From: a bacterium
GTDB taxonomy: Bacteria; Electryoneota; RPQS01
Assembly (NCBI GenBank): GCA_016702305.1
Contig: JADJEH010000001.1
Coordinates: 508,368 to 572,367 of the forward strand
Reading direction: 5' to 3'
DNA: 64,000 nucleotides
Shown here: positions 36,465 through 55,162 of the stretch, piece by piece
How the letters are laid out: every line of letters starts with the position of its first letter
How positions within the stretch are numbered: position 1 is the stretch's first letter
Notes under the pieces: model-generated
What the model was told of the DNA's origin: nothing
Seen by the model: the letters and a program-made list of their open reading frames with translations, nothing else
The model's database searches: none
Position numbers and translations under genes: made by a program

Positions 36465-36483
36465 AGTGCAAGGAGTGCATGTG

Positions 36484-39400: not shown

Positions 39401-42400
39401 ACAGTGACGCGACGCTGTTGCCCGCGAATGGCGCGGCGACCGCGACGATAACGGTCAACCTCCGCGAGACGAGCAGCACGATCGCGATATCGGGTGCAAC
39501 AATCCTGTGCGGCGCGAACATGGGTTCGATTGCCGCGAGCGGCATCACCAGTGAAGCCGGTGTTGCAACCTTCACGTATACTTCGGGAGTTGAAGTGGGC
39601 GACGCGAGTATCATCGTGCGCTACGGCAACCAGTTGCGTGATACGGTGACGATCTCTATGTTCTCGCCCTCGCCATCCGGATTGGACCTTGAGTCCGATC
39701 AGATGTCGTTGTTGGCCGACGGTCAGAGCTCGGCGAATCTGAGCTGCCGACTGTTGGATCAATCGGGCAGTCCGATTGCGAACACGCAGATTGTCTGGAG
39801 CGTGAGCGGTCCGGGCAGCCTGACGGATGGCATGAGCTACACGAACTCCGACGGCTATGCGACGAATGTTTACAACAGCGCAGGCCGCGCCACGGATGCG
39901 ACGACCATTGTGCGGGCGCATTCGCAGTCCGCGTCTGATTCCGTGTCGCTTGCGTTGCGTGGCGTGACGGTCGTCTCATCTGCACAATTCAATGCGATGC
40001 CGGCAAACGGCATTTCAAGCAACACGATTACGGCTCAAGTTCGTGAGACAACCAGTCTCGTTGCGGTGTCGGGACGAGACGTGACGTTTGGCACGAGCCT
40101 CGGTTCCATACCGAACACGGCTGTTACGAACTCGTCGGGTATGGCCACCGTGAATCTTGTAGCCGGAAGCACGAGCGGCAATGCGCTGGTCGTGTGCACG
40201 ATGGGTCCGCAACTTGGTGATTCGGTGATGGTCAACATGTATGCGCCAACGGCGCAGAACGTGGCGGTTGTCCCGCAGACCAATACGGTGCGTGCCGACG
40301 GATTAAGCAGTGTACCGGTTACGGCCACGGTCAGCGACGCCATGGGTGTACCATTGGCCGATGCGACCATCACCTGGACGGCAAGTGGAATCACTTTCAC
40401 GCCGGTGACGACCGTGACCGGACCCGACGGCGTGGCGATGCTGAATTTCGCTCCGGCGGGCCGTTCGACCAATCTGAGTACTACCTTGACTGCGGCTGCC
40501 GGTACGGCGCAAGGCACAACCGCGATTACGCTGCGCGGCGTCACAGTGACGACGACGGCGATTCCGGACATGGTCATTGCGGACGGCAACTCGACCTCAG
40601 AGATTCGCGTGCATGTTTACGAGACCGTTTCGCAGATCGCGATTCCTGAAGCGACGGTCTATTTCGGGACAAATCCCGGTACGATACCGCAATCGGCTGA
40701 AACGGATGCGAGCGGCGTCGCGTCGGTAAACCTTGAGGCTTCAACGACGACTGGCACCGCCACGGTAACGGCAACGTATGGTCAGACGCTTACTGCGCAG
40801 ACCAGTGTCCTGTTTGCCGCTTCGACGCCTACCACGCTTTCGTTGACGGCATCGCCGACGATTCTGTTTGCTGACAACAACTCGGCTTCAACGCTGACCG
40901 CGAATGTGACGGACCAGAACGGCAACCCGGTGCCCGATGGCACGCAGGTACGATTCAGCATTCCGCCGCAATCAGGATCGCTCGAGAATCTGCGGACTAC
41001 AGTCGGCGGCGTGGCGAGCAATTCGTTGACGTCCAGCTCGAGTCCTGACACGTTCTATGTCGCAGCGTGGGCCGAGGATAACCCGGTCGTGCGCGACAGC
41101 GTTCAAATCATCTACCGCGTCGGCGATCCGTCTGTAGTGATCATGTCGGCGATGACCGATAGCTTGCTGGCGAACGGCATCGCAACTGACAGCATCACCG
41201 CACGGGTGACGGATGCCGTGGGGCACCCGCTGCCCAATGTGGAAGTGCAGTTCAACGCCACCATAGGCAACATCACGGCCAGCCGCGTTACGAACGCACA
41301 GGGCAACGCGACCGTACCGTTTAGTTCGTCGCAAACGGGCACATCCATTGTGACGGCCCGCGCCGGGTCGGCGGTGGCGAGTTACAACATCTTCCTGTTG
41401 CCCGGCCTGCCGAACAGCATCCAGTTGACATTCCTGCCGAATTCGGTTGGCGTGCGCGGAAGCGGACGCAACGAAACGCTGTTGATTACGGCGACCGTCA
41501 ACGATGCGAACAACAATCCAGTCGTGGATGGAACGCCCGTGACGTTTAACATCAACAACTCCCCCGGCGGCGGTGACTTCCTGTCGAGCGGGAACGCGAT
41601 TCCGACGATTAACGGTCAAGCGACGGTCGCCTACAATTCGGGCACCGTGAGCGGTACGGCCCGCGTGCGAGCGGTCTGCGCCGGCGTGAGCGCCGTATCC
41701 ACGGAAATTTTGATTCACGCTGGACCGCCGTATATCGAGAACATTGGCGACGGCTGTCTGTCGAGTCACATGGCAATCGGCGCGAGTCCGTGCAATATGT
41801 TCGGCATGGATATCGTGGGCGAGAGCGTCCAGTTGGTTTGCCTCGTGGGCGATCGTTATAACAACCCCGTGACGCCGGGTACCGCCGTGTACTTCACGAC
41901 ATCCGGCGGCGTAGTGACCACAGCCACAGGTTATACCGACTCGGCCGGCTTTGCGCGCGTCACGCTGTACAGCGGCAATCCGCTGCCGACCGTGAGCCGT
42001 TGGCTGAACACCTTGACCGATCCGAATCTGGGCACAACGGTGCTTTGTACCGACGTGCCGGATCAGAATGGCATGGCCAAGGTCATGGTAAAGACGGCCG
42101 GTGTTGACGCCACGGGCGACAGCGTCTGGGTGTGGGCCACGACAAACGTCGTGTTCGATTACAGCCAGCCGATCCTGAACCTCCGAGAAGTGACTGTCAA
42201 CGGCGACCCGGACGAGCGCACACTGTTCATCGGCGAAAATGCGTTGATTCGCTTCGCACTGTATGACAGCAACTACTGGCCGATGGTGTCGGGTACGACC
42301 GTGACCTTCAGCGCGAGCGCAGGCAACGTCTACCCGAGTGAAATCGAAATCGGCTGTCCGGGCGACACCACCTACACGGTCAGCTTCTTCAACAACATGA

Positions 42401-42552
42401 CGACGAACGATGACGACGCCGCCACCCCGGTGCTGATCAACGTTTCCGCAGAGTACGGCGCGGCCTATGCGTTCACTGAGACGTTCACGTTGCGCGCGGC
42501 ATTCAGCGGTGCGGCGCCACCGCCGTCCCGCGATGATGAGACCATTCAATAA
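36484..42552 (+). CDS. giant (2031 aa) surface lipoprotein built from ~20 tandem bacterial Ig-like (Big_1/invasin-type) domains
   Basis: Lipoprotein signal MQRRLPFSFWLPMGTLLSVALWYGC; ~95-aa modules repeating ..LLANG.S.T.V.A.V.D..GNP.....V.F....G.....T.TDA.G.A.A.F... about 20 times; C-terminal non-repeat ~350 aa. Confidence 0.8.
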   Translation: MQRRLPFSFWLPMGTLLSVALWYGCEQKGDLSPVSSARDNLAFIDTIIIDPPVISPLGTAWIEARVVNEQQEPAAGEDVRFTATRGTFGEDGPDVTIPADNYGVARTLYTAPADTGNVSLHIELVSMQTAQSRSLPVQVGAGSQDGLLSVSADEDTLFADNGASTTQVRARVRNALNNPIGGAEVTFSTSRGVITSPSVTDAQTGAATATLTSTEAIGRAMVVATYNGNSDTVYVEFLEPFEASAIHVNTSLSSLTAGMDSSVISARVIGEDGQTLRTNVMVTFAANAGSFTAQAVTTVNGVATTTYRAPVTAGPVTIVASTGTVTGEADVTVNPGALASLTLTTGADTLDADNASETMVRALARDTYGNPALPGTIVAFSSVNGSITESASTDASGYANATFRAGLNSGNATVTALNGSIGGSAAIYLQMTEAEALNMTVTPRQLVADGQSTAILRAQVLDGDNRPVSNGTIVTFTSELGQLDGTGAIHDGGKQSPTWKNSGNSALARTQTARLHGHNKAMRGPERRGDPAMSVFNAVTQDGYAVATLTSSTTAANDLISAVVNGLTDEETVTYSAGTAASVEVTPADADLPADGASSTPVVCRVYDAFGNPLGGGVAIAVTSTIGTLLPTSGFTNASGTFTTNLTSARQVGNCAIVANAGAASGYAEVDFTAPEVAGLVLTSTSSSILADGYSSTVVVATVRDQLGLPVSGRTVAWSAGNGIGTLQVITGVTDANGTVSAEFFSGASNVDASQVVDAAAEGEEGSYAITMRGVTVLVNVEADNLPANGQATTDVHATIRETSSGLAVPSAPVRFATTNGSIEQFAETNESGVATAVYQAGNDAGEVHISASFGDTLRAQSMITLTNTDAEQIVVTMGDSELLANGESSTEVSAFVTDEGGYPVENVEVVFTSVANGSFEPVTTFTDAAGFARSEFIAVASENDLVAPIDVAIERSAIQDTLTLRGVTLHAYSDATLLPANGAATATITVNLRETSSTIAISGATILCGANMGSIAASGITSEAGVATFTYTSGVEVGDASIIVRYGNQLRDTVTISMFSPSPSGLDLESDQMSLLADGQSSANLSCRLLDQSGSPIANTQIVWSVSGPGSLTDGMSYTNSDGYATNVYNSAGRATDATTIVRAHSQSASDSVSLALRGVTVVSSAQFNAMPANGISSNTITAQVRETTSLVAVSGRDVTFGTSLGSIPNTAVTNSSGMATVNLVAGSTSGNALVVCTMGPQLGDSVMVNMYAPTAQNVAVVPQTNTVRADGLSSVPVTATVSDAMGVPLADATITWTASGITFTPVTTVTGPDGVAMLNFAPAGRSTNLSTTLTAAAGTAQGTTAITLRGVTVTTTAIPDMVIADGNSTSEIRVHVYETVSQIAIPEATVYFGTNPGTIPQSAETDASGVASVNLEASTTTGTATVTATYGQTLTAQTSVLFAASTPTTLSLTASPTILFADNNSASTLTANVTDQNGNPVPDGTQVRFSIPPQSGSLENLRTTVGGVASNSLTSSSSPDTFYVAAWAEDNPVVRDSVQIIYRVGDPSVVIMSAMTDSLLANGIATDSITARVTDAVGHPLPNVEVQFNATIGNITASRVTNAQGNATVPFSSSQTGTSIVTARAGSAVASYNIFLLPGLPNSIQLTFLPNSVGVRGSGRNETLLITATVNDANNNPVVDGTPVTFNINNSPGGGDFLSSGNAIPTINGQATVAYNSGTVSGTARVRAVCAGVSAVSTEILIHAGPPYIENIGDGCLSSHMAIGASPCNMFGMDIVGESVQLVCLVGDRYNNPVTPGTAVYFTTSGGVVTTATGYTDSAGFARVTLYSGNPLPTVSRWLNTLTDPNLGTTVLCTDVPDQNGMAKVMVKTAGVDATGDSVWVWATTNVVFDYSQPILNLREVTVNGDPDERTLFIGENALIRFALYDSNYWPMVSGTTVTFSASAGNVYPSEIEIGCPGDTTYTVSFFNNMTTNDDDAATPVLINVSAEYGAAYAFTETFTLRAAFSGAAPPPSRDDETIQ

Positions 42553-43730: not shown

Positions 43731-44501
43731 ATGCTTGCAATAACACGCATGGGCGAACACAGGGCAATCGGGCGCATACAGCGCGGCGCATCGTTATTGG
43801 AGATGACACTCTCCATGACTCTGGGCGCCGTAATTCTGGTTTCACTCTTCTCGCTCTACTACGTCGCGGCGGCTACCGCGGCCAAAGAAGAGAGCAGATC
43901 AGTCGCTACTTCGGAAGGGCGCTTGCTGACCATGCGCGTTGTGCGCGACGTGCGTTTAATGGGGCTTCTCGCGACCGAAGACATTGACGGCGACAGCAAT
44001 GACATTGACACCGATGTTCCGGACATAAACTGGAGCAACGGGGTGCTTGAACCAATCGAGCATGCGTCCACTTACAACCTTGTCTTCAGTTGTGACATTG
44101 ACGACGACTCGGTCACCGAAACCGTCGGTTATTGGATGAATGAGAACGGCATTCAGCAGGACATGTGGGAATGGCAACGTGACTCGACGGACTGGAGTAT
44201 TCGCACCGCTCGAATCATTGGAGACAATGTGGACGCGGTGTTGTTCCGTTACTACGACAGAGACGGAAATGAGCTTCCGACGTCCGGGCCGATCCCGGTA
44301 GGCGGATATACTCTGACCGCGGGCGAGCGCATGCGGGTGACAGCCGTTGAGGTGAGCGTCGTCATTCGTTCGGAAGAGGCCGCCAACGTTACGCGCAGCA
44401 ATTACCTGATGCTGCCGGACGGCAGATACTGGTACGATCACTTTCACCGGGAGCTGTACCGCTTCCTGGTGCGCGGACGCAATTTGAATCTTGAATCATA
44501 A
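43731..44501 (+). CDS. pilW: minor pilin, PilW-like
   Basis: N-terminal GASLLEMTLSMTLGAVILVSL prepilin-like helix; 256 aa; follows pilV as in pilVWX(Y1) operons. Confidence 0.55.
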   Translation: MLAITRMGEHRAIGRIQRGASLLEMTLSMTLGAVILVSLFSLYYVAAATAAKEESRSVATSEGRLLTMRVVRDVRLMGLLATEDIDGDSNDIDTDVPDINWSNGVLEPIEHASTYNLVFSCDIDDDSVTETVGYWMNENGIQQDMWEWQRDSTDWSIRTARIIGDNVDAVLFRYYDRDGNELPTSGPIPVGGYTLTAGERMRVTAVEVSVVIRSEEAANVTRSNYLMLPDGRYWYDHFHRELYRFLVRGRNLNLES

Positions 44502-44510: not shown

Positions 44511-46172
44511 ATGAACATGAAACGAAGTCATGGCGGCTCGAAGGGCGGCAAGGCAGGGCAAAGTACGCGCCAGCAGGGCATGATTATGCTGGCCGCGGTA
44601 GTTATGCTGGCTGGTCTGATGTTTGTGGCAACGACTTCCTCGCTGAACTCGATTGGTACAACAAAAGTTGAAACGACTGCGCTGGATGAAACCCGGACGT
44701 TCTATGCGGCGGAGGCCGCCGTCGAATGGGGTGTTGATCAGTTGCGCGACTACCTTATGGTCAATCTGGACCCGGAAACCGCAGAGCTGGATTCACTGCC
44801 GCTCCCGGACATGGATGGTTATGTGTACGACCTCTACGAAGTCGAACGTGTTGGAGTGACGACGCAAGAAGTCATCACGGCAGGTGACTATCAGGGCCTG
44901 ATCGGTTTTGTTAATCGGTACGGCATCACAGCGCGCGCGCAGTCCAACCGATCCTCGACGACCATTGCGCGCGAAATCCAACATCAGTTCATTCCGCTGT
45001 TTCAATTCGGCGTGTTCTATGATAAGGACCTTGAAATATACCCGGGCCCTGAAATGACTTTTGAGGGTCGAGTGCATACAAATGCAGACCTATTCATGGG
45101 TGCTGAGACCGGCATCATCTGCAATTCGTATGTTACATCGGGCGGTCAATACTGGCACCACCGCAAGGATGGCGCGCACGTTGACCCGCCGGGCTATGTG
45201 CGCATCATGAACAACCTTGGCGCTTACGAAGATGTGTGGCGGGGCGGATATTGGTTGGACAATCGCCAGGCGGATTGGGCGAATCAGGCATTGACTGTGT
45301 GGGGCGGACAAGTACGCGACAGCGCGCACGGCATGTCAACGCTCCGGTTGCCGCTGCCGCCCGCCGCTGACCAGCACGAAATCGTCGAGCGCGCGGACAC
45401 GCTCAATGACGGCGCTCAAGAGATTGCCGCAAAGTACTGGTACAAGGCCGGTATGCGTTACGTAGACGGAGTGCTGACGGACAGTGCGGGAACGGTGCTG
45501 GCGAATCCGGGCTACTTCGTCTATACGGTCAACAAGTTCACGGACGCTCGTGAAGGTCGGAGAATGGACGTTGTTGATGTTGACATAGGTGCGATCCGGG
45601 CCGCCGGAGTGTATCCGGCAAACGGCATCATCTACATCAGCGATTACCGCGGTGCGGACAAAGCCGTACGCATCAAGAATGCAGCACAACTCCCGCCGAA
45701 CGGGCTAACGATCGCGACCGATCTGCCGCTTTATATCTGGGGAAACTACAACACCGTCAGCAAGCGTGGTTCGTCGCTGCTTTGCGATGCGATCACCTTC
45801 TTGTCGCCGGCCTGGCTTGACGCAAACTCTGCGTTACCGCTGAACAGCCGGGTACCCAGTACCATGACGGTGAATGCCTGCATAATGACCGGTCATGTCT
45901 CGAGCGTTGACGGCGGAGCCTATAGCGGCGGTCTGGAAAATCTGCTGCGTTTCCTCGAAAAGTGGAGCTCGCAATGGGTGAACTACCGGGGGAGCATGAT
46001 AGACCTGTGGTATAGCCGCTACAACGTTGCGCCATGGGTGTATGGTGGCTACTATACGGCTCCAAAACGTAACTGGGGATTTGATACCGACCTACTTGAT
46101 CCGGACAATTGGCCTCCGGGAACTCCGCGCGTACACACAGTGCAACGCGGCGCGTGGCGGCAGATAAGCTAA
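44511..46172 (+). CDS. pilX: PilX N-terminal-domain protein (large, possibly PilY1-like tip factor)
   Basis: RQQGMIMLAAVVMLAGLMFVATTS is the PilX_N pattern; 553 aa globular C-terminal region. Confidence 0.55.
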   Translation: MNMKRSHGGSKGGKAGQSTRQQGMIMLAAVVMLAGLMFVATTSSLNSIGTTKVETTALDETRTFYAAEAAVEWGVDQLRDYLMVNLDPETAELDSLPLPDMDGYVYDLYEVERVGVTTQEVITAGDYQGLIGFVNRYGITARAQSNRSSTTIAREIQHQFIPLFQFGVFYDKDLEIYPGPEMTFEGRVHTNADLFMGAETGIICNSYVTSGGQYWHHRKDGAHVDPPGYVRIMNNLGAYEDVWRGGYWLDNRQADWANQALTVWGGQVRDSAHGMSTLRLPLPPAADQHEIVERADTLNDGAQEIAAKYWYKAGMRYVDGVLTDSAGTVLANPGYFVYTVNKFTDAREGRRMDVVDVDIGAIRAAGVYPANGIIYISDYRGADKAVRIKNAAQLPPNGLTIATDLPLYIWGNYNTVSKRGSSLLCDAITFLSPAWLDANSALPLNSRVPSTMTVNACIMTGHVSSVDGGAYSGGLENLLRFLEKWSSQWVNYRGSMIDLWYSRYNVAPWVYGGYYTAPKRNWGFDTDLLDPDNWPPGTPRVHTVQRGAWRQIS

Positions 46173-47364: not shown

Positions 47365-48474
47365 ATGGAACTCAAAGGGCTGTTGGAGATGCTGTTCGCC
47401 AAAAAGGCGTCGGACTTGCACTTGCGGGTCGGCAGCGTGCCGGTGTTGCGGATTGATGGCAATCTGTTCGGCACGCGACCGGAGCCGGTGAGCGAGCGCG
47501 AGATGACGGTGTTGTTGAATGAAGCCCTGACATCGGGTCAGTTGGAGCGCTTCCTGCGCGACAAAGAGCTTGACCTTGCGTTGACCGTTCCCGGCCATGG
47601 CCGAGTGCGCGTAAACGCCTATTTCCAAAAAGGCACTCCGGCGCTGGCTTTCCGCGCCATCAAGACGTCCATTCCAACGTTTAAAGAGCTGGGGCTTCCG
47701 CCTGCCATCGAGCGCCTGTGCTCGCAGCGCCGCGGCATCATTCTGCTTACCGGCGCCACCGGATCGGGAAAGTCCACGACGATGGCCTCGATGATCGAGC
47801 ACATCAATCAAACGCGCAGCCTCAATATCCTGACGATTGAAGATCCGATCGAGTTCGTGTTCTCGAACAAAAAGTCGCTGATCGCTCAGCGCGAGGTGCT
47901 GATTGACACGGAGTCGTTTCTGGCGGCTCTGACGCATGCGCTGCGCGAAGACCCGGACATTATCATGGTCGGCGAGATTCGCGATCAAAATACCATGAAG
48001 ATCGCATTGCAAGCCGCGGAGACCGGCCACCTTGTGCTGACGTCTCTGCACACCCTGAATGCGGTTGAGGCTATCAACCGCATTATCTCGTTCTTCCCGT
48101 TGAATGAACAGGCGCAGATCCGCGCGATGCTCTCCGGCGCCTTGCAAGCCGTGATTTCACAGCGGCTCGTCGGCCGCAAAGATGCGCGGGGCCGCGTACC
48201 GCTGGTGGAGATCATGATCAGCACCGCCGCCATCCGTGAGTGTCTCACGCAGACTGACAAGATGAACCTGATTCACGGACTTATCGAGGACGATCAGGGC
48301 ACTCACGGTATGCAGACATTCGACCAATCCATTTTGAATCTGTTTAATCTCGGACTGATCTCAATTGAGACAGCCCTTGAAAACGCGAATAATCCGAATG
48401 ACCTCGAAATGGCCATACGCGGCATTAAGTCGTCCGGATCCAGACTTGCGGAGGCGGCCCATGGAGTCGCATAA
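47365..48474 (+). CDS. pilU: second PilT-family retraction ATPase (PilT2/PilU-like)
   Basis: Walker A GATGSGKSTTMAS, EDPIEF, LREDPDIIMVGEIRD, His box LTSLHT; 369 aa. Confidence 0.88.
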   Translation: MELKGLLEMLFAKKASDLHLRVGSVPVLRIDGNLFGTRPEPVSEREMTVLLNEALTSGQLERFLRDKELDLALTVPGHGRVRVNAYFQKGTPALAFRAIKTSIPTFKELGLPPAIERLCSQRRGIILLTGATGSGKSTTMASMIEHINQTRSLNILTIEDPIEFVFSNKKSLIAQREVLIDTESFLAALTHALREDPDIIMVGEIRDQNTMKIALQAAETGHLVLTSLHTLNAVEAINRIISFFPLNEQAQIRAMLSGALQAVISQRLVGRKDARGRVPLVEIMISTAAIRECLTQTDKMNLIHGLIEDDQGTHGMQTFDQSILNLFNLGLISIETALENANNPNDLEMAIRGIKSSGSRLAEAAHGVA

Positions 48475-49078
48475 TGAGAGCAATTTGTTGGAGACGCTGG
48501 AACGCTATCGCGTGCGACGGTTCACGGGCAAGATTTCCGTCGAGAACGAACTGACCACAGCGGACATTTGGTTCGTGCGCGGAAACTTGACGCACGTTGA
48601 GAACCGCAACGGCGAGACCGGTTGGAAAGCACTTGAAGGCCTCAAAGGCGGCACGTTGTCATGTGCCGAGCTGATGGACGCGCTGCCGCCGCAGCGCTCG
48701 ATTCGAGTCGAAACGGGGCGGCTGCTCAAGGCGATGAGAAGTTCGGCAGGCGCGCAGCGGGAAGCTGCTTTGCGCGTGCCGGTGCCGCTGCATTTGCGGC
48801 TGCAAACGAAGTTCATGGAGTTGCGCAACCGGATAAGCGGCCTGCGCGCTTTCGAGCTCAGCCGGGCCAAGCACGAACGTGAAAGCAGCCGGGGTAGTGG
48901 TGAACGTCTAATCCTCGAGCGCGATCCGCGCGGGTGCCGGTGGACGCACCGGAATAGCCAAAATGAGCTGACTGTTCGTGGAGACGAGAGTACGACCACG
49001 ACCGAATTAATGCTGGCCGGAGAAGAAATGTGGCGCGAATTTGAGCGACTGAATCATTCCGACCGGGGCCATGAGTAA
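48461..49078 (+). CDS. DUF4388-like domain protein
   Basis: Start at MESHNESN overlapping pilU end; ..LLETLERYRVRRFTGKISVENELTTADIWFVRGNLTHVEN..GWKALEGL matches the DUF4388 (PATAN-like) pattern found with pilus/gliding regulators. Confidence 0.5.
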   Translation: MESHNESNLLETLERYRVRRFTGKISVENELTTADIWFVRGNLTHVENRNGETGWKALEGLKGGTLSCAELMDALPPQRSIRVETGRLLKAMRSSAGAQREAALRVPVPLHLRLQTKFMELRNRISGLRAFELSRAKHERESSRGSGERLILERDPRGCRWTHRNSQNELTVRGDESTTTTELMLAGEEMWREFERLNHSDRGHE

Positions 49079-50255
49079 CTCCGCAGCTCTTGACGCTCGC
49101 CTCGAGAAACGACTTGTTCGCAGCCGTTTGTTGAATGACGAGCAGCTTTCGCGAGCGCAAGTCGTGCAACGCGAATCTGCGGTCAGTCTGGCCGAGGCAA
49201 TTGCCCAATTGAACCTGATTTCTATGCATGATCTCGCGACAATCGTCGAGAGCATGCAGGAGACACGCTCGGTTAAGCTCGAGGATGTTCAGATCGACTC
49301 CGAAGCGGTGAGGCACATCCCGGCGCAAGTGGCGTTGAAATTCGCGTGTGTCCCGGTCAGGCGATCAGGCAACACAATTGTGGTGGCGATGTCGGACCCC
49401 GGAGATAAGGCCGCACTGGATGCGCTGCGCGCCGTCACCGACTTCGAAATCATGCCGGTGCTGGCTGATTTTGAGGCACTTGAACATGCGCTGTACATCT
49501 TTTACGGTTCCGGAGCAAACACGGACGCAGGACGATTGGAAACGACCAAACGCGGCGGCGTGTCGAGCGGCTGGGAAATTGGTTCCCCGTGGAACTCGGA
49601 CTTTGATTCTTTTGTTGACCACGAGGGAGTGACGCGCGCGCGCGAGCTTGCCAAGATTGTGGCAGCGGGCCAGTGGGACGGCTTGAGTGAAGCGCTTGTT
49701 CTCGTCGGCCCGAGCGGTTGCGGCAAGTCGCATTTGCTAAGCGCAATTCGACACTATACGGCAACCCGCGAGCCCTTGCTGCGCGGCCTGCATGTTCACG
49801 GTGACCAGCTTAAGCGCGCGTTTGCCGATTACATGTTGGCGGGAAAAGAGAATGCGCTCCGCTTTGAAATGCGCGATAGATCATTGCTGCTCTTTGACGA
49901 CTTCTACAGCGCATGGGGACATGAAGCACTTGAAGAAGAGATCGTAACGGCCATGAACATTGTGCTTCACTCGGGCGGTGTGGTCATGGTTGCGCTGACA
50001 GTTGAACAGTTCTTCGGTGGACCGTTCAGCAAAGCGATGCGCGAGCTTATGGCGCGAGCGACCGAAGTCCGGATGCAACTGCCGACGGAGGACGCGATGC
50101 GGAGTATTGTCCGGGCCCGCTGCGGCGCGGAGCGCGCAGCTTCTCTGTGCGCCGAGCTGTGCAATCAGCAGTCCTCGCACACTTTGTGGTCTACAATGCA
50201 AGAGTGGGCGCTTGCCCATCCGGCACTCGATCAAGACAAAGCGGTGCAACGATGA
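49071..50255 (+). CDS. fusion protein: N-terminal GspE_N/MshEN-like domain + C-terminal Hda/DnaA-like AAA+ ATPase domain (no DnaA DNA-binding domain)
   Basis: aa ~10-140 parallel the PilB N-domain in this window (..VALKFACVPVRRSGNTIVVAMSDPGDKAALDALRAVTDFEIMPVLA..ALYIFY). aa ~170-390: DFDSFVDHEGVTRARELAKIVAAG....LVLVGPSGCGKSHLLSAIRH (DnaA box I/Walker A), LLLFDDF (Walker B), EEEIVTAMN, AMRELMARATEV as in DnaA/Hda domain III. Confidence 0.6.
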   Translation: MSNSAALDARLEKRLVRSRLLNDEQLSRAQVVQRESAVSLAEAIAQLNLISMHDLATIVESMQETRSVKLEDVQIDSEAVRHIPAQVALKFACVPVRRSGNTIVVAMSDPGDKAALDALRAVTDFEIMPVLADFEALEHALYIFYGSGANTDAGRLETTKRGGVSSGWEIGSPWNSDFDSFVDHEGVTRARELAKIVAAGQWDGLSEALVLVGPSGCGKSHLLSAIRHYTATREPLLRGLHVHGDQLKRAFADYMLAGKENALRFEMRDRSLLLFDDFYSAWGHEALEEEIVTAMNIVLHSGGVVMVALTVEQFFGGPFSKAMRELMARATEVRMQLPTEDAMRSIVRARCGAERAASLCAELCNQQSSHTLWSTMQEWALAHPALDQDKAVQR

Positions 50256-50644
50256 ACAGCACGAGGGTCATGCTGCTGGATGATGATTCGCGGTATCTGG
50301 AAGTCATTCAGTTCAGCTTGGAGTCCGCGGACATGACGGTCGATACAGCCGTTTCGGGAGCCGGTCTCAGCGCCCGCATAGAGCGCTTCGCACCAGATGT
50401 TCTCGTGATGGATGTCATGCTTGGTGAGCATAACGGGATTGCACTCGCGCGTGCCTTTCGTGAGGAAAGTGGGCGCTATGACTTGCCGATCGTGTTTGTG
50501 AGCGCTTGGACCGGAACCGGTGAATTGCGATTACCTGGGAATTCAGTGATGCTGTTCAAGCCGTTTACACCGAACGAGTTAATCAAAGCAATTGGTGATG
50601 CGCTGCGTGGGCAGCAGGTCACCGCAGACAATAATGTGCGCTGA
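50252..50644 (+). CDS. stand-alone response-regulator receiver (CheY-like) domain
   Basis: Start at MNSTRVMLLDDDS (overlaps previous stop, ATGA); acidic pocket DD..., phospho-acceptor D in VLVMDVML, conserved K in LFKPF. Confidence 0.75.
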   Translation: MNSTRVMLLDDDSRYLEVIQFSLESADMTVDTAVSGAGLSARIERFAPDVLVMDVMLGEHNGIALARAFREESGRYDLPIVFVSAWTGTGELRLPGNSVMLFKPFTPNELIKAIGDALRGQQVTADNNVR

Positions 50645-51755
50645 AGTTACATCAAATCACACCGCGCTTGTTCTGGCCGACGCAATCCTGCGTTCTGCTG
50701 TTGATCTGGCGTATGTTATAGATCGCAAAGGGCAACTTGTGGCCGGTAATGAGCGCTTCTGGTTGGAGTTCTCCGTTACTGGGGCGCCCAGTCCGCTGCA
50801 ACCGCTGGCTGGTATGATCGCGGAAGATGAACGCGCGATGGCTGAGCGTATATGGGAGACCGTACAGCGACACCGGCGAGCGGAGCGATCGGTGCGCCAC
50901 ATGCGAACGACAGGCGGACAGATGCACACCTTCAGCGTCGTCGAGACTCCGGTGGTGCATGCCAACGAGGTGACGGGTGTTCTGGGTGTGGCGCGCGACG
51001 TGAGCGAAGAAGCGACCATTGAAGATAAGTTGTGGAATCAGCAGGAACATCGCGAGGCGGCGCTCGAATACGCCGTGCGTGCTTCGATGGGATTGGTCAA
51101 GGGTTACGTATATTCCCTACGCAAACTTGAGAACATGCCCGAAGATAAACGCAGCCGTTTCAGTCAGGTGATCGCAGACGAAATTGACACCATGGGCCGG
51201 AGCATTGATAATTTGCTATTCAGTCGCGGCTCTGCGGACCTCCACGCGGATGAAGAGGTGTTTGACCTGCGGCATGTAGTGCACGAGGTGTTGAGCAACT
51301 GCAGAGCGGAAAGTGTGCGACGTGAGATCCGCCTGGAGTTTGACGATCCCAATGTGGAAGTGAATTACCACGGCCATGAAGAAGCGGTAGCGCGCGTGAT
51401 CGCGAACCTCGTAGACTTCTGCCTGTTGCGCCTCACTCACATGGGCACGGTCACGGTCAGCATCTCAGACTGCGTCGAGTATATTGATATCGGCATCGTG
51501 GACAAGGGCGCGCCGGTCAATCGGGAGCAATTGGACGGGCTATTGAGTCCGGCACGAACTCCCGTGAAGGCTGATGGCGTCGCCTTCAGCGGCACGTTTG
51601 ATCTTGAAGTCGCCAGACTACTGTGCGATTCAATGGGCGGAGGACTGGATCTGCGGGTGAGCGATGACCATAGCATTCAGTTTACAATCATGCTCCCGCG
51701 TTCGATCAATTATTTACATCGCGGCACCGTTCAATCACATTCGGCGGTCGAGTAA
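50634..51755 (+). CDS. PAS-domain histidine-kinase-like protein with atypical H-box and degenerate ATP-lid motifs
   Basis: PAS-like N-terminus (..YVIDRKGQLVAGNERF..), DHp-like segment QQEHREAALEYA...IDNLLFSRGSAD, HATPase_c-like region with ANLVDF (N-box-like) and DKGAPV (G1-like) but no clear GxGLGL G2; overlaps the REC gene by 11 nt. Confidence 0.55.
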   Translation: MCAEVTSNHTALVLADAILRSAVDLAYVIDRKGQLVAGNERFWLEFSVTGAPSPLQPLAGMIAEDERAMAERIWETVQRHRRAERSVRHMRTTGGQMHTFSVVETPVVHANEVTGVLGVARDVSEEATIEDKLWNQQEHREAALEYAVRASMGLVKGYVYSLRKLENMPEDKRSRFSQVIADEIDTMGRSIDNLLFSRGSADLHADEEVFDLRHVVHEVLSNCRAESVRREIRLEFDDPNVEVNYHGHEEAVARVIANLVDFCLLRLTHMGTVTVSISDCVEYIDIGIVDKGAPVNREQLDGLLSPARTPVKADGVAFSGTFDLEVARLLCDSMGGGLDLRVSDDHSIQFTIMLPRSINYLHRGTVQSHSAVE

Positions 51756-51789: not shown

Positions 51790-53511
51790 ATGGCAAAGCG
51801 GAGCAAAATCGGCATCGGGATTGACGTGGGCAGCAAGCGTGTTCGCCTCGCGGTCCTGAAAAATACGGGTGACACCGTGGCCGTGGATAAACTGGCATGT
51901 GTGGATCTGCCACAGGACGCTGTCGTGGACGGCATGCTGATGGACAGCACGGCCGTTAGTGATGTGCTGACCCAGTTGGCCAAAGAGCACGGTCTGAAGG
52001 GCAAAGAGATCGCTGTCGCCGTCGGTGGCCGCCAGTTGATGATCAAGAAGATCACGACAGACGACATGTCTGACGAAGAACTGCGCCACGCGATTGAATA
52101 CGAAGCGGACACAAACCTGCCGTTTAATATTGATCAGGTGTCGCTCGACTATGCCCGCTTGCATCAAGACGTTGACGGCGGTCGGATGGACGTCCTGCTT
52201 GTGGCCGCGAAGAATGAGGTTGTATTCGACTCGACGGAACCGCAGCATTGGGCCGGCATGAAGCCGAAACTTCTCGAAGCCGCGCCGTTTGCCATTCAAG
52301 CCGCGCTCACCGAGGCGGGATACCTCGATATGGAAGGTATCGTCGGAGTCTTGCACATTGGTTTTCAAAGCACGGAGGTTATGCTCTATGACATGTCCCA
52401 GTTTGAGACCAGCCGCAGCATTCCGATCGGCGGTAAGGCCTACATTGAAGGACTGATCAGGCGATGTGGCTTTGGATTTGACAAGGCGGTGGGTATGCTC
52501 GGCAAGACCGTGCGTACTGAAGAGGAGCAGGATGCTCTGGATGCGGTGGCACGGAGCGTCAGTGAGCGTCTCGCTGAACAGATCGAACGCGGCCTGCCCG
52601 AGTACCTTGGAGTTTTGGCCGAGCGCCCGATTTCGCGCATGCTGATGTGCGGCGGAGGTGCGGAGCTGCCGTGCCTTCAGTCGGCCATGCGTCAGCGCTT
52701 CGGCATTGATGTTGACGTTGTGGATCCGTTCCGCAAGATGAATGCGCCGTCCAAAGGTGTTGTGCTGCCTGAAGGCGGCGACGCCGCAGGATATTCGAGC
52801 GCGGTAGGGTTGGCTCTGCGAGCCATGGGCGGCGATCACCCCGGATTCAACTTAGTGTTCCGCAGTGACCGCCCGGAGACCAAGCGCGAGCACTATCTGG
52901 GCGCGCGCGCGGTGGTACCGATTCTGGGAATCTCAGCCGTGCTGCTGGGTATGACGATTGTGCATCTCAGCCAGCAAAACCGACTATCTGCGCTCGAATC
53001 CCGACTGGAGGCTATTCGCTCCGAGACGGACATCTACAGGGACAAAATCGCCGTTGTTGAAGACCTGACGATGAAGCGCGCCGACGTCTCGGAACGCATT
53101 GACGTGATTCAAGAGCTCGATCGCAATCGGTTCGCACGTGTCGAAGTGCTTGAGATGCTTGCACGCCGACTGCCGTCCTTAATGTGGTTGACCGAAGTCA
53201 AAGAGTCGCCGACGCCCAACGGTGCGGGCGTGCACGTATCCGGTATGACGAGTTCAAATACTCGCGTCGCTGAGTTTATGACGGCGCTGCTGAACGAACC
53301 ACGCGTCAAGGCGGTGGACCTACTGGTCACGCAAAGCAACCAAATTGGCGAGACCGATGTTACCGAATTCACGCTGCAGATAACCATACCGACGATTGAA
53401 ATGCAGGCGATTAAGTCCAAGCGCGAAAATCTGATCAAGAAGGGCGCGGCCGCCGTGAAAGAGAAGAACAAGGCGCTCGATGAGGCTAAGAAAGAAACTG
53501 AGAAGCATTAA
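51790..53511 (+). CDS. pilM: PilM-PilN fusion protein (actin-like ATPase fold fused to membrane-anchored PilN)
   Basis: aa 1-350 PilM (IGIDVGSKRVRLAVL..., VGLALR), then TM helix AVVPILGISAVLLGMTIV and PilN coiled-coil/periplasmic domain to aa 573. Confidence 0.85.
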   Translation: MAKRSKIGIGIDVGSKRVRLAVLKNTGDTVAVDKLACVDLPQDAVVDGMLMDSTAVSDVLTQLAKEHGLKGKEIAVAVGGRQLMIKKITTDDMSDEELRHAIEYEADTNLPFNIDQVSLDYARLHQDVDGGRMDVLLVAAKNEVVFDSTEPQHWAGMKPKLLEAAPFAIQAALTEAGYLDMEGIVGVLHIGFQSTEVMLYDMSQFETSRSIPIGGKAYIEGLIRRCGFGFDKAVGMLGKTVRTEEEQDALDAVARSVSERLAEQIERGLPEYLGVLAERPISRMLMCGGGAELPCLQSAMRQRFGIDVDVVDPFRKMNAPSKGVVLPEGGDAAGYSSAVGLALRAMGGDHPGFNLVFRSDRPETKREHYLGARAVVPILGISAVLLGMTIVHLSQQNRLSALESRLEAIRSETDIYRDKIAVVEDLTMKRADVSERIDVIQELDRNRFARVEVLEMLARRLPSLMWLTEVKESPTPNGAGVHVSGMTSSNTRVAEFMTALLNEPRVKAVDLLVTQSNQIGETDVTEFTLQITIPTIEMQAIKSKRENLIKKGAAAVKEKNKALDEAKKETEKH

Positions 53512-53538
53512 ACTCAAGATAGATTGGCAGGAGGTTCC

Positions 53539-53943
53539 ATGCGGAACGTAATGTGGATGACAATGATCATGATCGCCGGCTTGCTGGCAGTGTCATGTGA
53601 AGAGGGAATCAACGAGGACAACAGCTCCGCGAAGGTCACGGGCTACGTCTATCGTTCGCACGGCGACCCGTCCGGAGTGCCCGGCGTGCGAGTGATCATT
53701 GAAAGTGACGTTGAGTCGGAGAATCCGTACCTCGGTCCAGACCGATGGTTTGAAACGGATGCCAACGGCTATTTTGAGGCCTACGTCTTCCTCGGTACCG
53801 ATGAAGAGACCGGCGGGTATGACTATGTCGCCGACTGTCTGATTCAGTATTTCTACCAGGACGCTTCCGTCGGCTTGCCGACCGGCGGCATCACGCTGTC
53901 GCCTGGCTCGAACTTCACGATGCCGCCGCGCTATCTCAACTGA
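53539..53943 (+). CDS. small lipoprotein with carboxypeptidase-regulatory-like (transthyretin-type) fold
   Basis: Lipobox MRNVMWMTMIMIAGLLAVSC; GYVYRS.GDPSGVPGVRVIIES pattern; inserted between pilM/N and pilO. Confidence 0.5.
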   Translation: MRNVMWMTMIMIAGLLAVSCEEGINEDNSSAKVTGYVYRSHGDPSGVPGVRVIIESDVESENPYLGPDRWFETDANGYFEAYVFLGTDEETGGYDYVADCLIQYFYQDASVGLPTGGITLSPGSNFTMPPRYLN

Positions 53944-53957: not shown

Positions 53958-54596
53958 ATGTCGCTCAATTTACGCAGTCCGGGCACGCAGAAAACGCTGA
54001 TCGTCATCTTCCTGATGTTCGGCGCCGTCTATGCGTACTCGAACTTTGTGTACACGCCGCGGGAAGACAAAGCGACGCTGCTGGAAAAGAGTATTGCCGA
54101 AGAGCAAGAACTCTTGACCAAGGGCAAACGTATCGCCGCGAACTTCCAGACGGTGCAGGAAGACTACGCGCGGCTGATGGAAAGCTGGGATATCGCGATT
54201 CAACTCCTGCCGACGCAGCAGGAAATGGACGCGCTGCTGAAGAGCATCTCTGAAGAGGGAAGCCGCCGCGACGTGAACTTCCTCTTGTTCAGGCCGATGG
54301 ATCCCGTCGAGCAGCCGTACTACTGGGAATATCCGATCCAGATCCGCACGCTGTCATCCTATCACAGTTTGGGCCGCTTCGTGTCGGCCGTCGCCGGATT
54401 GGATAGAATCGTGAACGTGCGAAATTTCAAACTGGCCGCCTATCGCCCCAACAAGGGACGAAGCCCCAATACGGTTGAAGCCGAGTTTTTGGCCACGATC
54501 TACGTGTTCAAGGAGTTGGGCTCGCCCGTCGGTGTTACACCCAAGGAAGAAGAGACGAAGGGCAAGAAGCGCAAGAAGCCGGTGGAGGACGCATAA
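53958..54596 (+). CDS. pilO: type IV pilus alignment protein PilO
   Basis: N-terminal TM segment, coiled coil, C-terminal PilO-type ferredoxin-like repeat; position between pilN and pilP. Confidence 0.8.
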   Translation: MSLNLRSPGTQKTLIVIFLMFGAVYAYSNFVYTPREDKATLLEKSIAEEQELLTKGKRIAANFQTVQEDYARLMESWDIAIQLLPTQQEMDALLKSISEEGSRRDVNFLLFRPMDPVEQPYYWEYPIQIRTLSSYHSLGRFVSAVAGLDRIVNVRNFKLAAYRPNKGRSPNTVEAEFLATIYVFKELGSPVGVTPKEEETKGKKRKKPVEDA

Positions 54597-55162
54597 TGAA
54601 TTCGCTGATCAAATGGCTGACCATCGTGTTGTGCGTGGTCACGGTGTTTGCCGAAGAGGATAGCCCGGCCAAGCGCAAGAAGCTCGCGCCCAGCGAGCCT
54701 GTGGTCGTCGAAACGGACGGCGCGCCCCGCGCGGGCGAGACGCTTTCGACAAAGACCTCAGGGCTTGATTCTCTCGGAGTTATGCCGACAGAGATGGAGA
54801 CGCAGGCCAACGGCGGCACGCGCCGTGTGAAGCTTGAGTCGCTCGTGTTCAATCGCCACGAGCCGGTGCAATATCTGGCGTCGGATCTGCGCGATCCGTT
54901 CCGGGCATTGGTCGAAAAAGACAAACCGGACGACGCGCCGTCGGATCTACTGTCGCTTGACGGCGCGGTCCTGACCGGCGTCGTATGGTCCGATGGAAAA
55001 TATTTGGCCATGGTTAAGGACAAAGACGCCAAGAGTTTCTTCCTGCGGGAAGGCGACGCCGTACAGAATGGCAAGGTGCTATACGTCGGCCAGACCGAGT
55101 CCGTGTTCGAGGTTACCGAATTCGGTGACTACTCGCGCATCACGTTGAAAGTTCAAGGATAA
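54596..55162 (+). CDS. pilP: type IV pilus lipoprotein PilP
   Basis: Signal peptide MNSLIKWLTIVLCVVTVFA, disordered linker, C-terminal beta-sandwich ..LTGVVWSDGKYLAMVKD.....FLREGDAV.NGKVLYVGQTESVFEV. Confidence 0.78.
   Translation: MNSLIKWLTIVLCVVTVFAEEDSPAKRKKLAPSEPVVVETDGAPRAGETLSTKTSGLDSLGVMPTEMETQANGGTRRVKLESLVFNRHEPVQYLASDLRDPFRALVEKDKPDDAPSDLLSLDGAVLTGVVWSDGKYLAMVKDKDAKSFFLREGDAVQNGKVLYVGQTESVFEVTEFGDYSRITLKVQG

Follow-up and report, generated by a model that had tools for sequence, protein, structure and literature searches.

In the 64,000-nucleotide stretch of DNA analyzed here (the window), a gene in a type IV pilus cluster (positions 49071 to 50255, + strand) encodes the docking domain of the extension ATPase PilB joined to the ATPase core of the replication initiator DnaA. 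Such fusions form an undescribed, pilus-linked family that extends across several uncultured bacterial lineages, the linkage being observed at the 16 loci examined. With a probability of roughly 0.55, we read the window protein as a regulator or scaffold accessory to the type IVa pilus machine and not as a replication protein.

In the current view, hexameric ATPases of the PilB/PilT family both power and switch type IV pilus machines, whose known accessory regulators are PilZ, FimX, MglA/SgmX, and PATAN-REC proteins. If our reading is correct, a DnaA-type AAA+ protein wired to the pilus through a copy of the PilB docking domain would represent a new class of pilus-associated component, conserved in the pilus clusters of several deep uncultured lineages (WOR-3, Hydrogenedentes, and the Calditrichota-labeled clade of the window). 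The ATPase fold of a replication initiator would then have been recruited to a role outside replication.

Domain organization and the PilB-type N-terminal half

The 394-residue open reading frame (ATG start; TGA stop at 50253 to 50255) was found at exactly the coordinates, and on the + strand, given in the initial annotation. Profile searches placed two Pfam domains in it, MshEN and Bac_DnaA, each above its gathering score. No match was found to the T2SSE RecA-like ATPase domain (PF00437), which the neighboring PilB, PilT, and PilT2 match at E values of 1e-46 to 1e-144. The AF2 model contains two folded modules with a flexible tether between them. This linker (residues 148 to 175; 49512 to 49595, +) has a pLDDT below 50 over residues 148 to 173, and in the clade alignment it varies in length, with a mean pairwise identity of 0.17. 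The corresponding value is 0.56 for the MshEN_C region and 0.35, 0.35, and 0.15 for the remaining regions. Independent assemblies show an unbroken reading frame at 11 distinct orthologous loci, and it is intact in dozens of distant relatives, which rules out an assembly or frameshift artifact that fused two genes. The proposed two-domain architecture, an MshEN/T2SSE_N domain followed by DnaA domain III without domain IV, holds at the level of both sequence and fold; the N-terminal half has its T2SSE_N match, and the C-terminal half does not fall into another P-loop family.

The N-terminal half matches MshEN (PF05157) over residues 68 to 147 (E = 2.3e-16, 60 bits versus a cutoff of 23.1) and the NCBIfam PilB model over residues 11 to 152, and it is matched by PilB N termini in the PDB at E = 8e-17. 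It had been said to parallel the N-domain of the PilB encoded in the same cluster (28815 to 30611, +; MshEN plus T2SSE), and the two do align as paralogs, without gaps, at 24% identity over 145 residues (E = 9e-16). Both parts of the MshEN fold are present. The N-terminal four-helix bundle (MshEN_N; 49098 to 49256, +), modeled by AF2 as helices at residues 2 to 17, 23 to 36, 40 to 46, and 52 to 62, carries a degenerate tandem c-di-GMP motif. The C-terminal alpha-beta subdomain (MshEN_C, or T2SSE_N1; residues 66 to 147; 49266 to 49511, +) is the most conserved region of the protein. The fold, the order of subdomains, and the 24+5+24 register of the motifs are those of the PilB/MshE/GspE N-domain (PF05157; 5htl, 5zfr, 2d27). 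In those proteins, however, a T2SSE secretion ATPase follows MshEN, and the window protein lacks it.

It is well established that MshEN serves as a receptor for c-di-GMP and binds it with high affinity (PMC5013675). An intact motif was defined as RLGxx(L/V/I)(L/V/I)xxG(L/V/I)(L/V/I)xxxxLxxxLxxQ, 24 residues in length and present in two copies 5 residues apart. Motif I of the window protein (residues 10 to 33, RLEKRLVRSRLLNDEQLSRAQVVQ) is followed by a 5-residue spacer and motif II (residues 39 to 62, SLAEAIAQLNLISMHDLATIVESM). Both are in register, but key residues have been lost: RLG has become RLE and a Gly has become Arg in motif I, and motif II has the changes R to S, G to A, G to N, and Q to M. 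Its score is 8/11 plus 5/11, or 13/22, and it fails the relaxed regular expression of Wang et al. (2016). Against the NCBIfam c-di-GMP_motif model NF053729, it reaches 24.7 bits, under the cutoff of 38, while superfamily members with intact motifs (P0045, P0109, P0049, P0144, P0033, and P0044) pass at 60 to 66 bits. The replacements are clade-wide, with Gly3 of motif I usually Glu and Gly10 lost, and with Arg1 of motif II changed to Ser, Gly, or Pro, Gly3 to Ala or Ser, and Gln24 to Met or Leu. Contact residues are likewise replaced in XpsE that does not bind the ligand, where the changes that abolish binding include G11V, R38G, G40L, and Q61V (PMC5013675). Judged by its motifs, the window protein has probably lost c-di-GMP binding. 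The second-messenger input suggested for it at the outset finds no support in the motifs, which keep their register but not the key residues; this clade probably does not respond to c-di-GMP, and the relatives with intact motifs probably do. The motif in the window's own PilB is sub-threshold as well (26.5 bits against NF053729).

The DnaA-type AAA+ module

The C-terminal half matches Bac_DnaA (PF00308) over residues 177 to 307 (E = 3e-13, 50.7 bits versus a cutoff of 23) and the DnaA model TIGR00362 over residues 177 to 350 (E = 5e-15), and it aligns without gaps to domain III of Thermotoga maritima DnaA (2z4r, residues 99 to 279). DnaA is its closest fold. Two other P-loop assignments, IstB (PF01695, IstB_IS21; 12.8 bits versus a cutoff of 24.1) and ATPase_2 (11.7 bits versus 33.2), fall short, and the half stays DnaA-type. 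Against the full-length DnaA model TIGR00362, the protein scores 55 bits, far under the cutoff of 343.9, and it matches neither DnaA domain I (PF11638) nor the DNA-binding domain IV (PF08299). Compared with DnaA proteins that share the domain III fold (PF00308; 8bv3, 2z4r, 1l8q, 8btg), it lacks domains I, II, and IV, and its lid is truncated.

The AAA+ base is of the DnaA domain IIIa type (residues 176 to 335; 49596 to 50075, +) and opens with DFDSFV at residues 177 to 182. In and beside the Walker A P-loop GPSGCGKS (residues 213 to 220; 49707 to 49730, +), G213, G218, and H221 are invariant in the clade, and 16 of 17 members keep the Lys, the exception being P0006, which has Arg. Walker B is LLLFDD (residues 272 to 277; 49884 to 49901, +); its D276 is invariant, and the second acidic residue varies (Ala in P0008, Asn in L013 and P0030). 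A two-helix insert (residues 244 to 268; 49800 to 49874, +) lies between beta2 and the Walker B strand, and in the AF2 model its helices (244 to 257 and 260 to 268) sit between strands at 239 to 243 and 272 to 276. The insert is DnaA-like in length and aligns with DnaA without gaps; by alignment and model, it is the counterpart of the initiator-specific motif (ISM) that marks the DnaA/Orc/DnaC clade.

The helix AMRELMAR (residues 322 to 329; 50034 to 50057, +) is the equivalent of DnaA box VII. The DnaA domain III/Hda motifs noted earlier (DFDSFV, GPSGCGKS, LLLFDD, and AMRELMAR) are all present, but the arginine of RELMAR is not the arginine finger, a role excluded when the sequence is aligned with 2z4r and five true DnaAs. 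That residue, R324, aligns with the noncritical DnaA position 283; the finger itself (E. coli R285) is replaced by L326, and R281 is replaced by A322. R324 is conserved in 11 of the 12 aligned clade members and could substitute, from its shifted position, for the lost finger. The sensor-I Asp position is T310. In the short, IIIb-like lid (residues 336 to 394; 50076 to 50252, +), which has a pLDDT of 54 to 75 in the AF2 model and a mean pairwise identity of 0.15, there is no sensor-II arginine; its position (R334) is S374, adjoined by the conserved W373. The Lys/Arg positions of the single-stranded DNA (ssDNA) B-motif are H284 and A286. The placement of the sensor-I Asp, R281/R285, and R334 (E. 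coli numbering) is anchored on the five aligned DnaAs.

These catalytic residues are absent from nearly all 17 clade members, with an isolated Arg or Asp in one or two sequences. All five DnaA controls have them, as do about 17 canonical fusion proteins, by which we mean relatives, such as P0036 and P0065, with an intact arginine finger, sensor II, and B-motif Lys/Arg and, in some cases, intact c-di-GMP motifs. What the window clade has kept is the two Walker motifs, the initiator-specific insert, and the N1 subdomain, and the residues with which DnaA contacts ssDNA have been replaced. Alignments and a model, rather than a nucleotide-bound structure, are the basis for the loss of finger and sensor II; on this reading, the AAA+ module is catalytically degenerate and has probably lost ATP hydrolysis. 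Of the AAA+ switch that had been proposed, the AAA+ module is real, but its catalytic machinery is not preserved.

Gene neighborhood and the wider fusion family

The gene does lie, as first described, between pilU/DUF4388 and a REC/kinase pair. On its 5' side, a second retraction ATPase of the PilT/PilU type (47365 to 48474, +; T2SSE, E = 9e-46, no MshEN) is followed by a PATAN/DUF4388-like gene of about 205 codons (48461 to 49078, +), the TAA stop of which (49076 to 49078) overlaps the start of the fusion gene. On its 3' side, a single-domain response regulator (REC; 50252 to 50644, +; Response_reg, E = 1.5e-15) has an ATG that overlaps the TGA stop of the fusion gene (ATGA). The PATAN-like gene, the fusion gene, and the REC gene are thus translationally coupled through overlapping stop and start codons on both sides. 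The REC translation has an acidic DDD pocket and, at the usual receiver positions, the Asp of VLVMD, the Ser of FVS, and the Lys of FKP. Next come a PAS-containing histidine kinase-like gene (50634 to 51755, +; PAS_4 plus HATPase_c), with its ATG at 50634 set by homology to the gene call in a locus of 98 to 100% identity (L010), and a 573-residue PilM-PilN fusion in a GspL-like arrangement (51790 to 53511, +; PilM_2, E = 1e-51; PilN, E = 8e-13). The latter is conserved in all clade loci and is a candidate docking partner. The gene order beyond the kinase is pilMN-O-(P)-Q.

REC and kinase genes flank every ortholog, and the PATAN-like gene is present in 10 of 11 distinct clade loci (it was not detected in L016 by tblastn). 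PF14332 matches six of seven PATAN-like orthologs, at best with E = 2.4e-7; the window copy is a weak match (E = 0.01). PATAN and REC also occur together in a pilus-regulating context in the PixG/PixE-type regulators of cyanobacterial phototaxis. There, however, they are fused, while here they are separate genes on either side of the fusion gene, the PATAN-like one with a weak Pfam match.

A word-indexed search had returned eight proteins and the view that the architecture was unique to one small clade, which was overturned by an exhaustive profile search. We defined the superfamily as single polypeptides with N-terminal MshEN and C-terminal DnaA-III, without domain IV, that match one end-to-end profile. 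Of the top 150 representatives of 50%-identity clusters, about 38 match this profile from about position 10 to 382 in one stretch, and precomputed PF05157 plus PF00308 assignments exist in about 30 of the matches listed. Dozens of 50%-identity clusters have the fusion, with examples from metagenome-assembled genomes (MAGs) of WOR-3 and Hydrogenedentes; the clade of the window is known from MAGs alone. Many relatives retain every DnaA catalytic signature, and some retain intact c-di-GMP motifs. In 17 of 17 clade members, both halves score higher against profiles of the fusion family than against those of PilB N termini or true DnaAs, which argues that the clade shares its origin with the canonical fusions.

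A type IV pilus cluster surrounds the gene at all 16 distinct loci in a small, nonrandom sample (11 from the clade and 5 from distant members), so the same fusion is both found in relatives and pilus-linked wherever we looked. The order TPR-PilT-PATAN-target-REC-HK-PilMN-PilO-PilQ is common to the 11 clade loci, PATAN being undetected in L016, even as the identity of the fusion protein ranges from 31 to 98%. Among the five distant loci, the gene is directly 5' of pilMN in L020 (WOR-3) and L022, and it adjoins pilB, pilC, or pilT in L019, L021, and L023. In loci where PilT2, PilQ, PilO, and PilMN are 74 to 92% identical, the fusion protein is 38 to 55% identical, and its operon neighbors PATAN, REC, and HK diverge as fast as it does.

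The architecture had been noted as one not known from described type IV pilus, T2SS, or replication systems. A literature search found no paper describing MshEN-DnaA, and a query for "DnaA-like" with pilus or PilM returned nothing relevant; it is nevertheless not a one-off but a broad superfamily visible in databases. In Wang et al. (2016), MshEN is likewise an N-terminal module on an output domain (PMC5013675). The partners catalogued there are the T2SSE ATPase, NfrB/GT2, REC, HD-GYP, CheA/CheX, cyclase, STK, and the AAA_31 protein EpsG, and a DnaA-type AAA+ partner is absent from both main text and supplement (PMC5013675).

Proposed role and competing explanations

A regulatory role at the pilus motor, as suggested at the outset, remains the best reading and is supported by the pilus synteny. 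The N1-type subdomain would dock the protein on the cytoplasmic face of the pilus machine; MshEN_C, being the most conserved region, is the proposed docking surface, and the contact would be expected on the invariant RRSGN/VTD/EHAL surface. The likeliest site would be the PilM part (51790 to about 52830) of the GspL-like PilM-PilN fusion, the place at which ATPases of the PilB family dock and to which both N-domain homology and gene order point, with PilB or PilT themselves as the alternative. The AAA+ module may bind ATP or ADP and hydrolyze poorly, so that its nucleotide state or self-association would provide a platform or a slow switch. Through it, the PATAN-like protein and REC, the latter phosphorylatable and under the control of the PAS kinase, might favor access of PilB over that of the two PilT-type ATPases (PilT at 31541 and PilT2 at 47365), or the reverse, and so control extension versus retraction or the site of pilus assembly. 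The faster divergence of the fusion protein and PATAN/REC/HK relative to the core pilus genes is in line with a regulatory rather than a core role.

Precedents exist for several of these steps. GspE/XpsE bind GspL, a homolog of the PilM-PilN fusion, via their GSPII N termini, and PilMN stimulates PilF by way of its GSPII-C domain (PMC6325625). In Thermus PilF, however, the GSPII domains are needed only for stimulation and not for PilMN binding (PMC6325625), which makes it unsafe to take MshEN as a general sign of PilM docking. In Synechocystis, response regulators with a PATAN domain reportedly bind the pilus motor (bioRxiv 10.1101/2021.06.11.447907). The AAA+ module could also have a completely different client.

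That the protein is a pure pseudo-ATPase scaffold, an AAA+ fold without a nucleotide cycle that bridges the PATAN-like protein and REC to the pilus base, is a rather unlikely alternative. The joint loss of sensor-I Asp, arginine finger, and sensor-II Arg, the variable second Walker B acid, and the short, poorly conserved lid are consistent with it, as is the P0006 ortholog, in which the change of the Walker A Lys to Arg accompanies a change of R324 to Gln; nucleotide chemistry would then possibly be dispensable. However, 16 of 17 clade members keep GxxxxGK[ST] and all 17 keep the first Walker B Asp at identities of 26 to 55%, which is hard to explain without selection for nucleotide binding. 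We regard as improbable a c-di-GMP-gated switch, in which MshEN binds the ligand, controls how the DnaA-like half oligomerizes or which nucleotide state it takes, and so tunes the pilus. The receptor function of MshEN elsewhere and the preserved motif register speak for such a mechanism, and it is plausible for the relatives that pass NF053729, but the clade-wide replacements, comparable to those that abolish binding in XpsE, and the sub-threshold PilB of the same genome argue against it here.

The two readings that involve DNA fare worse. In one, a DnaA-III filament at the pilus base would bind incoming ssDNA during pilus-dependent DNA uptake. This is quite improbable: no basic residue is conserved at the two B-motif positions in subclade A, the protein has lost the arginine finger that filament formation requires, and comEC, dprA, or comF-like genes were not seen among the cluster genes examined. 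The other, an Hda-like replication regulator that merely resides in a pilus locus or couples pilus activity to DnaA-ATP hydrolysis, is very improbable. Hda (TIGR03420; 3bos) acts in replication and has a clamp-binding motif and an arginine finger that it uses on DnaA. The window protein has neither a QL[SD]LF or QLxLx[LFIM] motif nor the finger, and it scores 26 bits against TIGR03420 (cutoff, 194.8) in a match confined to residues around the P-loop; its context is pilus synteny, seen at each of 16 distinct loci, and replication genes are absent from the vicinity. The string QLNLIS (residues 46 to 51) was rejected as a clamp motif; it is part of MshEN motif II in the helix bundle and fails the regular expression.

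A broader proposal, speculative and improbable in our view, is that the superfamily is a third class of ATPase at the pilus base, a filament-forming, ssDNA-capable DnaA-type module held on PilM by a PilB-like domain. Canonical members would handle incoming ssDNA in pilus-dependent DNA uptake or contact DnaA directly, and the window protein would be a derived regulatory remnant. If this were true, surface or pilus activity and c-di-GMP would be physically linked to DNA transactions. The superfamily grades from fully canonical members, with the c-di-GMP motif and all DnaA catalytic residues, to degenerate ones like the window protein and offers ready-made biochemical comparisons. Annotation pipelines label its genes "chromosomal replication initiator protein" or "DnaA/Hda family protein"; the label "chromosomal replication initiator protein DnaA" is very likely wrong.

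Domain identity of the fusion protein

The gene at 49071 to 50255 (+ strand) of the window encodes a 394-residue protein in which an MshEN domain is fused to a DnaA-domain-III-type AAA+ module, a combination that is real and far beyond chance. Pfam MshEN (PF05157) matches residues 68 to 147 (E = 2.3e-16, 60 bits against a cutoff of 23.1), and the NCBIfam PilB model aligns residues 11 to 152. The best relatives of known structure are PilB N termini (E = 8e-17), and the N-terminal half aligns without gaps with the N terminus of the window's own PilB, whose gene lies 20 kb upstream (28815 to 30611; 24% identity over 145 aa, E = 9e-16). In the C-terminal half, Bac_DnaA (PF00308) matches residues 177 to 307 (E = 3e-13, 50.7 bits, cutoff 23), and the NCBIfam DnaA model aligns residues 177 to 350. 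Domain III of T. maritima DnaA matches this half at E = 7e-10, and the alignment with its residues 99 to 279, which spans P-loop, beta2, two-helix insert, Walker B, and box VII region, has no gaps. Pfam and NCBIfam gave no match to DnaA domain I or domain IV.

In an AlphaFold2 model based on nine family members (mean pLDDT of 77.6), a disordered linker (residues 148 to 173) joins two folded modules. By fold, the N-terminal half resembles MshE (15.2), PilF (14.3), and XpsE (11.9). The C-terminal half is of the DnaA-domain-III type by profile, fold, and initiator-specific insert, with Hda next in the fold comparison (18.0), then DnaC (16.4) and IstB (16.0); identification of the protein as DnaA, Hda, or IstB/DnaC was rejected. 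The initial annotation, which had proposed a T2SSE_N/MshEN fold joined to a DnaA domain III-like module lacking domain IV, is thus borne out: the profiles place the C-terminal half in no other P-loop family and the N-terminal half within T2SSE_N.

The pilus cluster and its distribution

The window contains a complete type IVa pilus cluster, encoded on the + strand. PilB is followed by a conserved 304-aa gene without Pfam assignment (30614 to 31528), PilT (31541), PilC (32671), a PilR-like sigma-54 response regulator (33906), pilin (35484), a 2031-aa repeat protein (36457 to 42552), an outer membrane beta-barrel protein, three unassigned genes, one of them small and called only in orthologous loci, a TPR protein (46185), a second PilT-type ATPase (47365), and a PATAN/DUF4388-like gene of ∼205 aa (48461 to 49078). 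Downstream of the fusion gene lie a single-domain REC protein (50252 to 50644), a PAS/HATPase_c kinase (50634 to 51755), a PilM-PilN fusion (PilMN) of 573 aa (51790 to 53511), a small conserved gene without Pfam assignment (53524 to 53943), PilO, a conserved, PilP-sized 188-aa gene without Pfam assignment at the expected PilP position (54596 to 55162), and the secretin PilQ (55207). Conserved cluster genes without Pfam assignment also occupy 43731 to 44501 and 44511 to 46172, making five in all, and the 256-aa one among these five has a faint N_methyl (pilin-like) match in its ortholog at locus L009. The stop codon of the PATAN-like gene (TAA, 49076 to 49078) falls within the first codons of the fusion gene, whose TGA overlaps the REC start codon as ATGA. 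Overlaps on both sides are the arrangement expected of a translationally coupled operon.

The DUF4388 match is weak in the window copy (E = 0.01), while six of seven orthologs match, the best at 2.4e-7. The kinase contains PAS_4 and HATPase_c; HisKA was not detected in the window copy and is weakly matched in the distant orthologs of L008 and L009. PilMN is a GspL-like arrangement in a type IVa cluster, found likewise in L020 (WOR-3) and L022. Orthologs of the 2031-aa protein, whose position is kept in all loci of the clade described below, carry many Big_1/Invasin_D3 repeats, and it could be a pilus-associated adhesin. Directly 3′ of pilQ are two open reading frames of ∼920 to 950 aa (56608 to 59454 and 59465 to 62230) whose orthologs are S8 peptidases with Por_Secre_tail, a T9SS sorting domain that implies a type IX secretion system and an FCB-like lineage.

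A word-indexed search returned eight proteins with the MshEN-DnaA-III architecture, and a scan of species-representative genomes returned eight loci, all from MAGs; all carriers of the gene are uncultured. The rarity suggested by the eight proteins gave way when a profile was run exhaustively against 1.84 billion cluster representatives, yielding 95 matches below 1e-30. The profile matched end to end in a single stretch in about 38 of the best 150 representatives, among them proteins with only 25 to 35% identity to the window protein and two very large ones (1876 and 1990 aa). Further relatives came from a second search that started from 17 of the distant members. The few source names are "chromosomal replication initiator protein" (JGI), a WOR-3 hypothetical protein, and "DnaA/Hda family protein [Candidatus Hydrogenedentes]"; the architecture is already visible in databases, auto-annotated as a replication initiator. 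A full-text literature search found no description of an MshEN-DnaA-type protein, and no DnaA-type module is among the catalogued MshEN partners, namely, T2SSE, glycosyltransferase, REC, HD-GYP, CheA/CheX, cyclase, Ser/Thr kinase, AAA_31, and M23 (Wang et al., PMC5013675).

The window protein belongs to a clade of 17 members, whose loci share the order TPR, PilT, PATAN-like, fusion, REC, PAS kinase, PilMN, PilO, PilQ, as checked by gene calls and by tblastn with the window's proteins. Across 11 distinct loci (identical loci counted once; 31% to 98% identity to the window protein), the sole exception is L016, where tblastn detected no PATAN-like gene. Core pilus proteins are 74 to 92% identical to those of the window in loci where the fusion protein is only 38 to 55% identical. 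The genes for the PATAN-like protein, REC, and the kinase have diverged about as fast as the fusion gene, a pattern that suits a regulatory cassette. Among five more distant loci, L019 and L023 have the order ExeA-like AAA_22, TPR, PilB, PilC, PilT, fusion, TPR (with an unassigned 380-aa gene between PilT and the fusion gene in L019); L020 has PilB, PilT, PilC, pilin, prepilin peptidase, TPR, stand-alone MshEN, TPR, fusion, PilMN, PilO, PilP, PilQ; L021 has fusion, PilB, PilT, PilS, PilR; and L022 has Roadblock/LC7, prepilin peptidase, TPR, fusion, PilMN, PilO, PilQ. The fusion gene adjoins pilMN on its 5′ side in L020 and L022. As to whether the fusion is always linked to pili in relatives, 16/16 distinct loci (11 from the clade and 5 from the wider set) are pilus clusters, a sample and not a census.

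The stand-alone MshEN protein (146 aa, L020:7651-8091) lies two genes 5′ of the fusion gene with TPR genes on both sides. The ExeA/GspA-like protein near the pilus cluster in two distant fusion-bearing lineages (L019:946-2766 and L023:1-2466) has AAA_22 in both and a faint peptidoglycan-binding domain in L019. The Roadblock/LC7 (MglB-like) gene near the fusion gene (L022:4214-4615) recalls Myxococcus polarity modules controlling type IV pili and the reported PATAN-Roadblock association.

Motif states of the two halves

The window protein keeps the exact register of the c-di-GMP motifs (motif I, residues 10 to 33, RLE...R...Q; motif II, residues 39 to 62, SLA...N...M) and scores 8/11 and 5/11, versus 10/11 and 10/11 for a PilB control. 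With the NCBIfam c-di-GMP_motif model (curated cutoff of 38 bits), it scores 24.7 bits, so c-di-GMP input is not predicted, in contrast to the second-messenger coupling raised initially as one option. Relatives P0007 (subclade B of the clade) and P0036 (a canonical-type fusion, with intact DnaA signatures) score 22.2 and 22.8, while six members of the wider fusion superfamily with intact motifs reach 60 to 66 bits. The cluster's own PilB has degenerate motifs (RLPNLL...) and scores 26.5 bits against 38. Comparable losses are known from XpsE, in which binding disappeared through G11V, R38G, G40L, Q61V, and other changes (Wang et al., PMC5013675). By profile and fold, the window protein belongs to the MshEN family, though it is predicted to lie outside the c-di-GMP-binding subset of that family; neither MshEN protein of the window locus is a predicted binder, and c-di-GMP input is plausible in parts of the superfamily.

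DnaA signature positions were read from an alignment of 46 fusion proteins and five true DnaAs, using the established E. coli numbering and functional roles; the functional assignments rest on this alignment and one AlphaFold2 model. About 17 fusion proteins are fully canonical, with TSDRPP (sensor-I Asp), RLxSRF (box VII R281/R285), and N[IV]RELEG (sensor-II R334), and also hold Lys/Arg at the single-stranded DNA (ssDNA) B-motif positions. The 17-member clade of the window protein retains the Walker A Lys (16/17), the first Walker B Asp (17/17), and the two-helix initiator-specific insert and has lost the remaining signatures: the window protein has T310 for the sensor-I Asp, A322 for R281, L326 for the R285 arginine finger, S374 for R334, and H284 and A286 in the B-motif. 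The Arg of the "RELMAR" helix, previously cited as a DnaA hallmark, is present and clade conserved (R324), but it aligns with the variable position 283 of DnaA, and L326 occupies the place of the arginine finger. At the second acidic residue of Walker B, the clade varies (A in P0008, N in L013 and P0030). In an ortholog from a "Calditrichaeota" MAG (P0006; loci L003, L004, and L018), a Walker A K→R change (GCGRT) occurs together with R324→Q, a paired loss that may point to a joint action of both residues on nucleotide.

An intermediate subgroup of the clade (P0007, P0008, L016, L017, and relatives) has a longer, DnaA-like lid and scores 77 to 142 bits with the true-DnaA profile, versus 24 to 53 bits for the window protein's subgroup, the most diverged. 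Both halves of 17/17 clade members score higher with canonical-fusion profiles than with PilB N-domain or true DnaA profiles, which, as a test that is not a phylogeny, favors a single ancient fusion followed by decay. P0007 (L008:10001-11719) has an extra C-terminal CBM_20 starch-binding-type domain beyond the lid. In the giants P0033 (1876 aa) and P0035 (1990 aa), an MshEN domain whose c-di-GMP motif is intact precedes a canonical DnaA-III module; then come ∼1300 aa of Glu/Ala/Lys-rich, coiled-coil-looking sequence, and another canonical DnaA-III module forms the C terminus.

Proposed role in the pilus machine

The most conserved parts of the clade are the MshEN_C/N1 subdomain, the P-loop, and Walker B; mean pairwise identity is 0.56 in MshEN_C/N1, 0.35 in MshEN_N and the AAA+ base, 0.17 in the linker, and 0.15 in the lid. 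In the T2SS, GspE/XpsE use their N-terminal GSPII region to bind GspL, described as a natural PilM-PilN fusion, and in Thermus PilF, GSPII-C is needed for motor stimulation by PilMN, though not for binding (PMC6325625). The window locus likewise encodes a PilM-PilN fusion, in the region two genes downstream of the fusion gene. PATAN-domain response regulators of Synechocystis are reported to bind the pilus motor (bioRxiv 10.1101/2021.06.11.447907). On the basis of N1 conservation, these precedents, and the proximity of pilMN, we propose that the N1-type subdomain mediates docking of the protein to the PilM platform or to PilB/PilT. The AAA+ module would bind nucleotide and hydrolyze it poorly, serving as a slow switch or assembly platform, and the cotranslated PATAN-like protein and REC, controlled by the PAS kinase, would act on or through the fusion protein. 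The output might be to bias extension versus retraction or to set the site of pilus formation. The domain assignments, gene order, operon coupling, and motif states are observations, and the partner for docking, the handling of nucleotide, and the output of the regulation are inferences. We assign this reading a probability of about 0.55. We regard the protein as an uncharacterized application of the DnaA ATPase fold, dedicated to the pilus and joined to the docking domain of PilB.

A pure pseudo-ATPase scaffold is unlikely given the conservation of the P-loop, and a switch gated by c-di-GMP is disfavored somewhat more strongly, by the motif tests. Handling of ssDNA during pilus-dependent DNA uptake is slightly less probable again for the window protein, which has neither the contact residues nor the arginine finger; the canonical relatives retain both. 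An Hda-like regulator of replication is very improbable, as the clamp motif and arginine finger are absent, the Hda model score is 26 versus 195, and the synteny is invariant.

DnaA-III modules also occur elsewhere without MshEN. Proteins of ∼600 to 690 aa (P0011, P0046, P0184, and others) have two tandem Bac_DnaA domains and lack domain IV; one cluster of such tandem proteins at 90% identity comprises 54 member sequences. TPR and DnaA-III are combined in P0205 (Sumerlaeia) and P0262.
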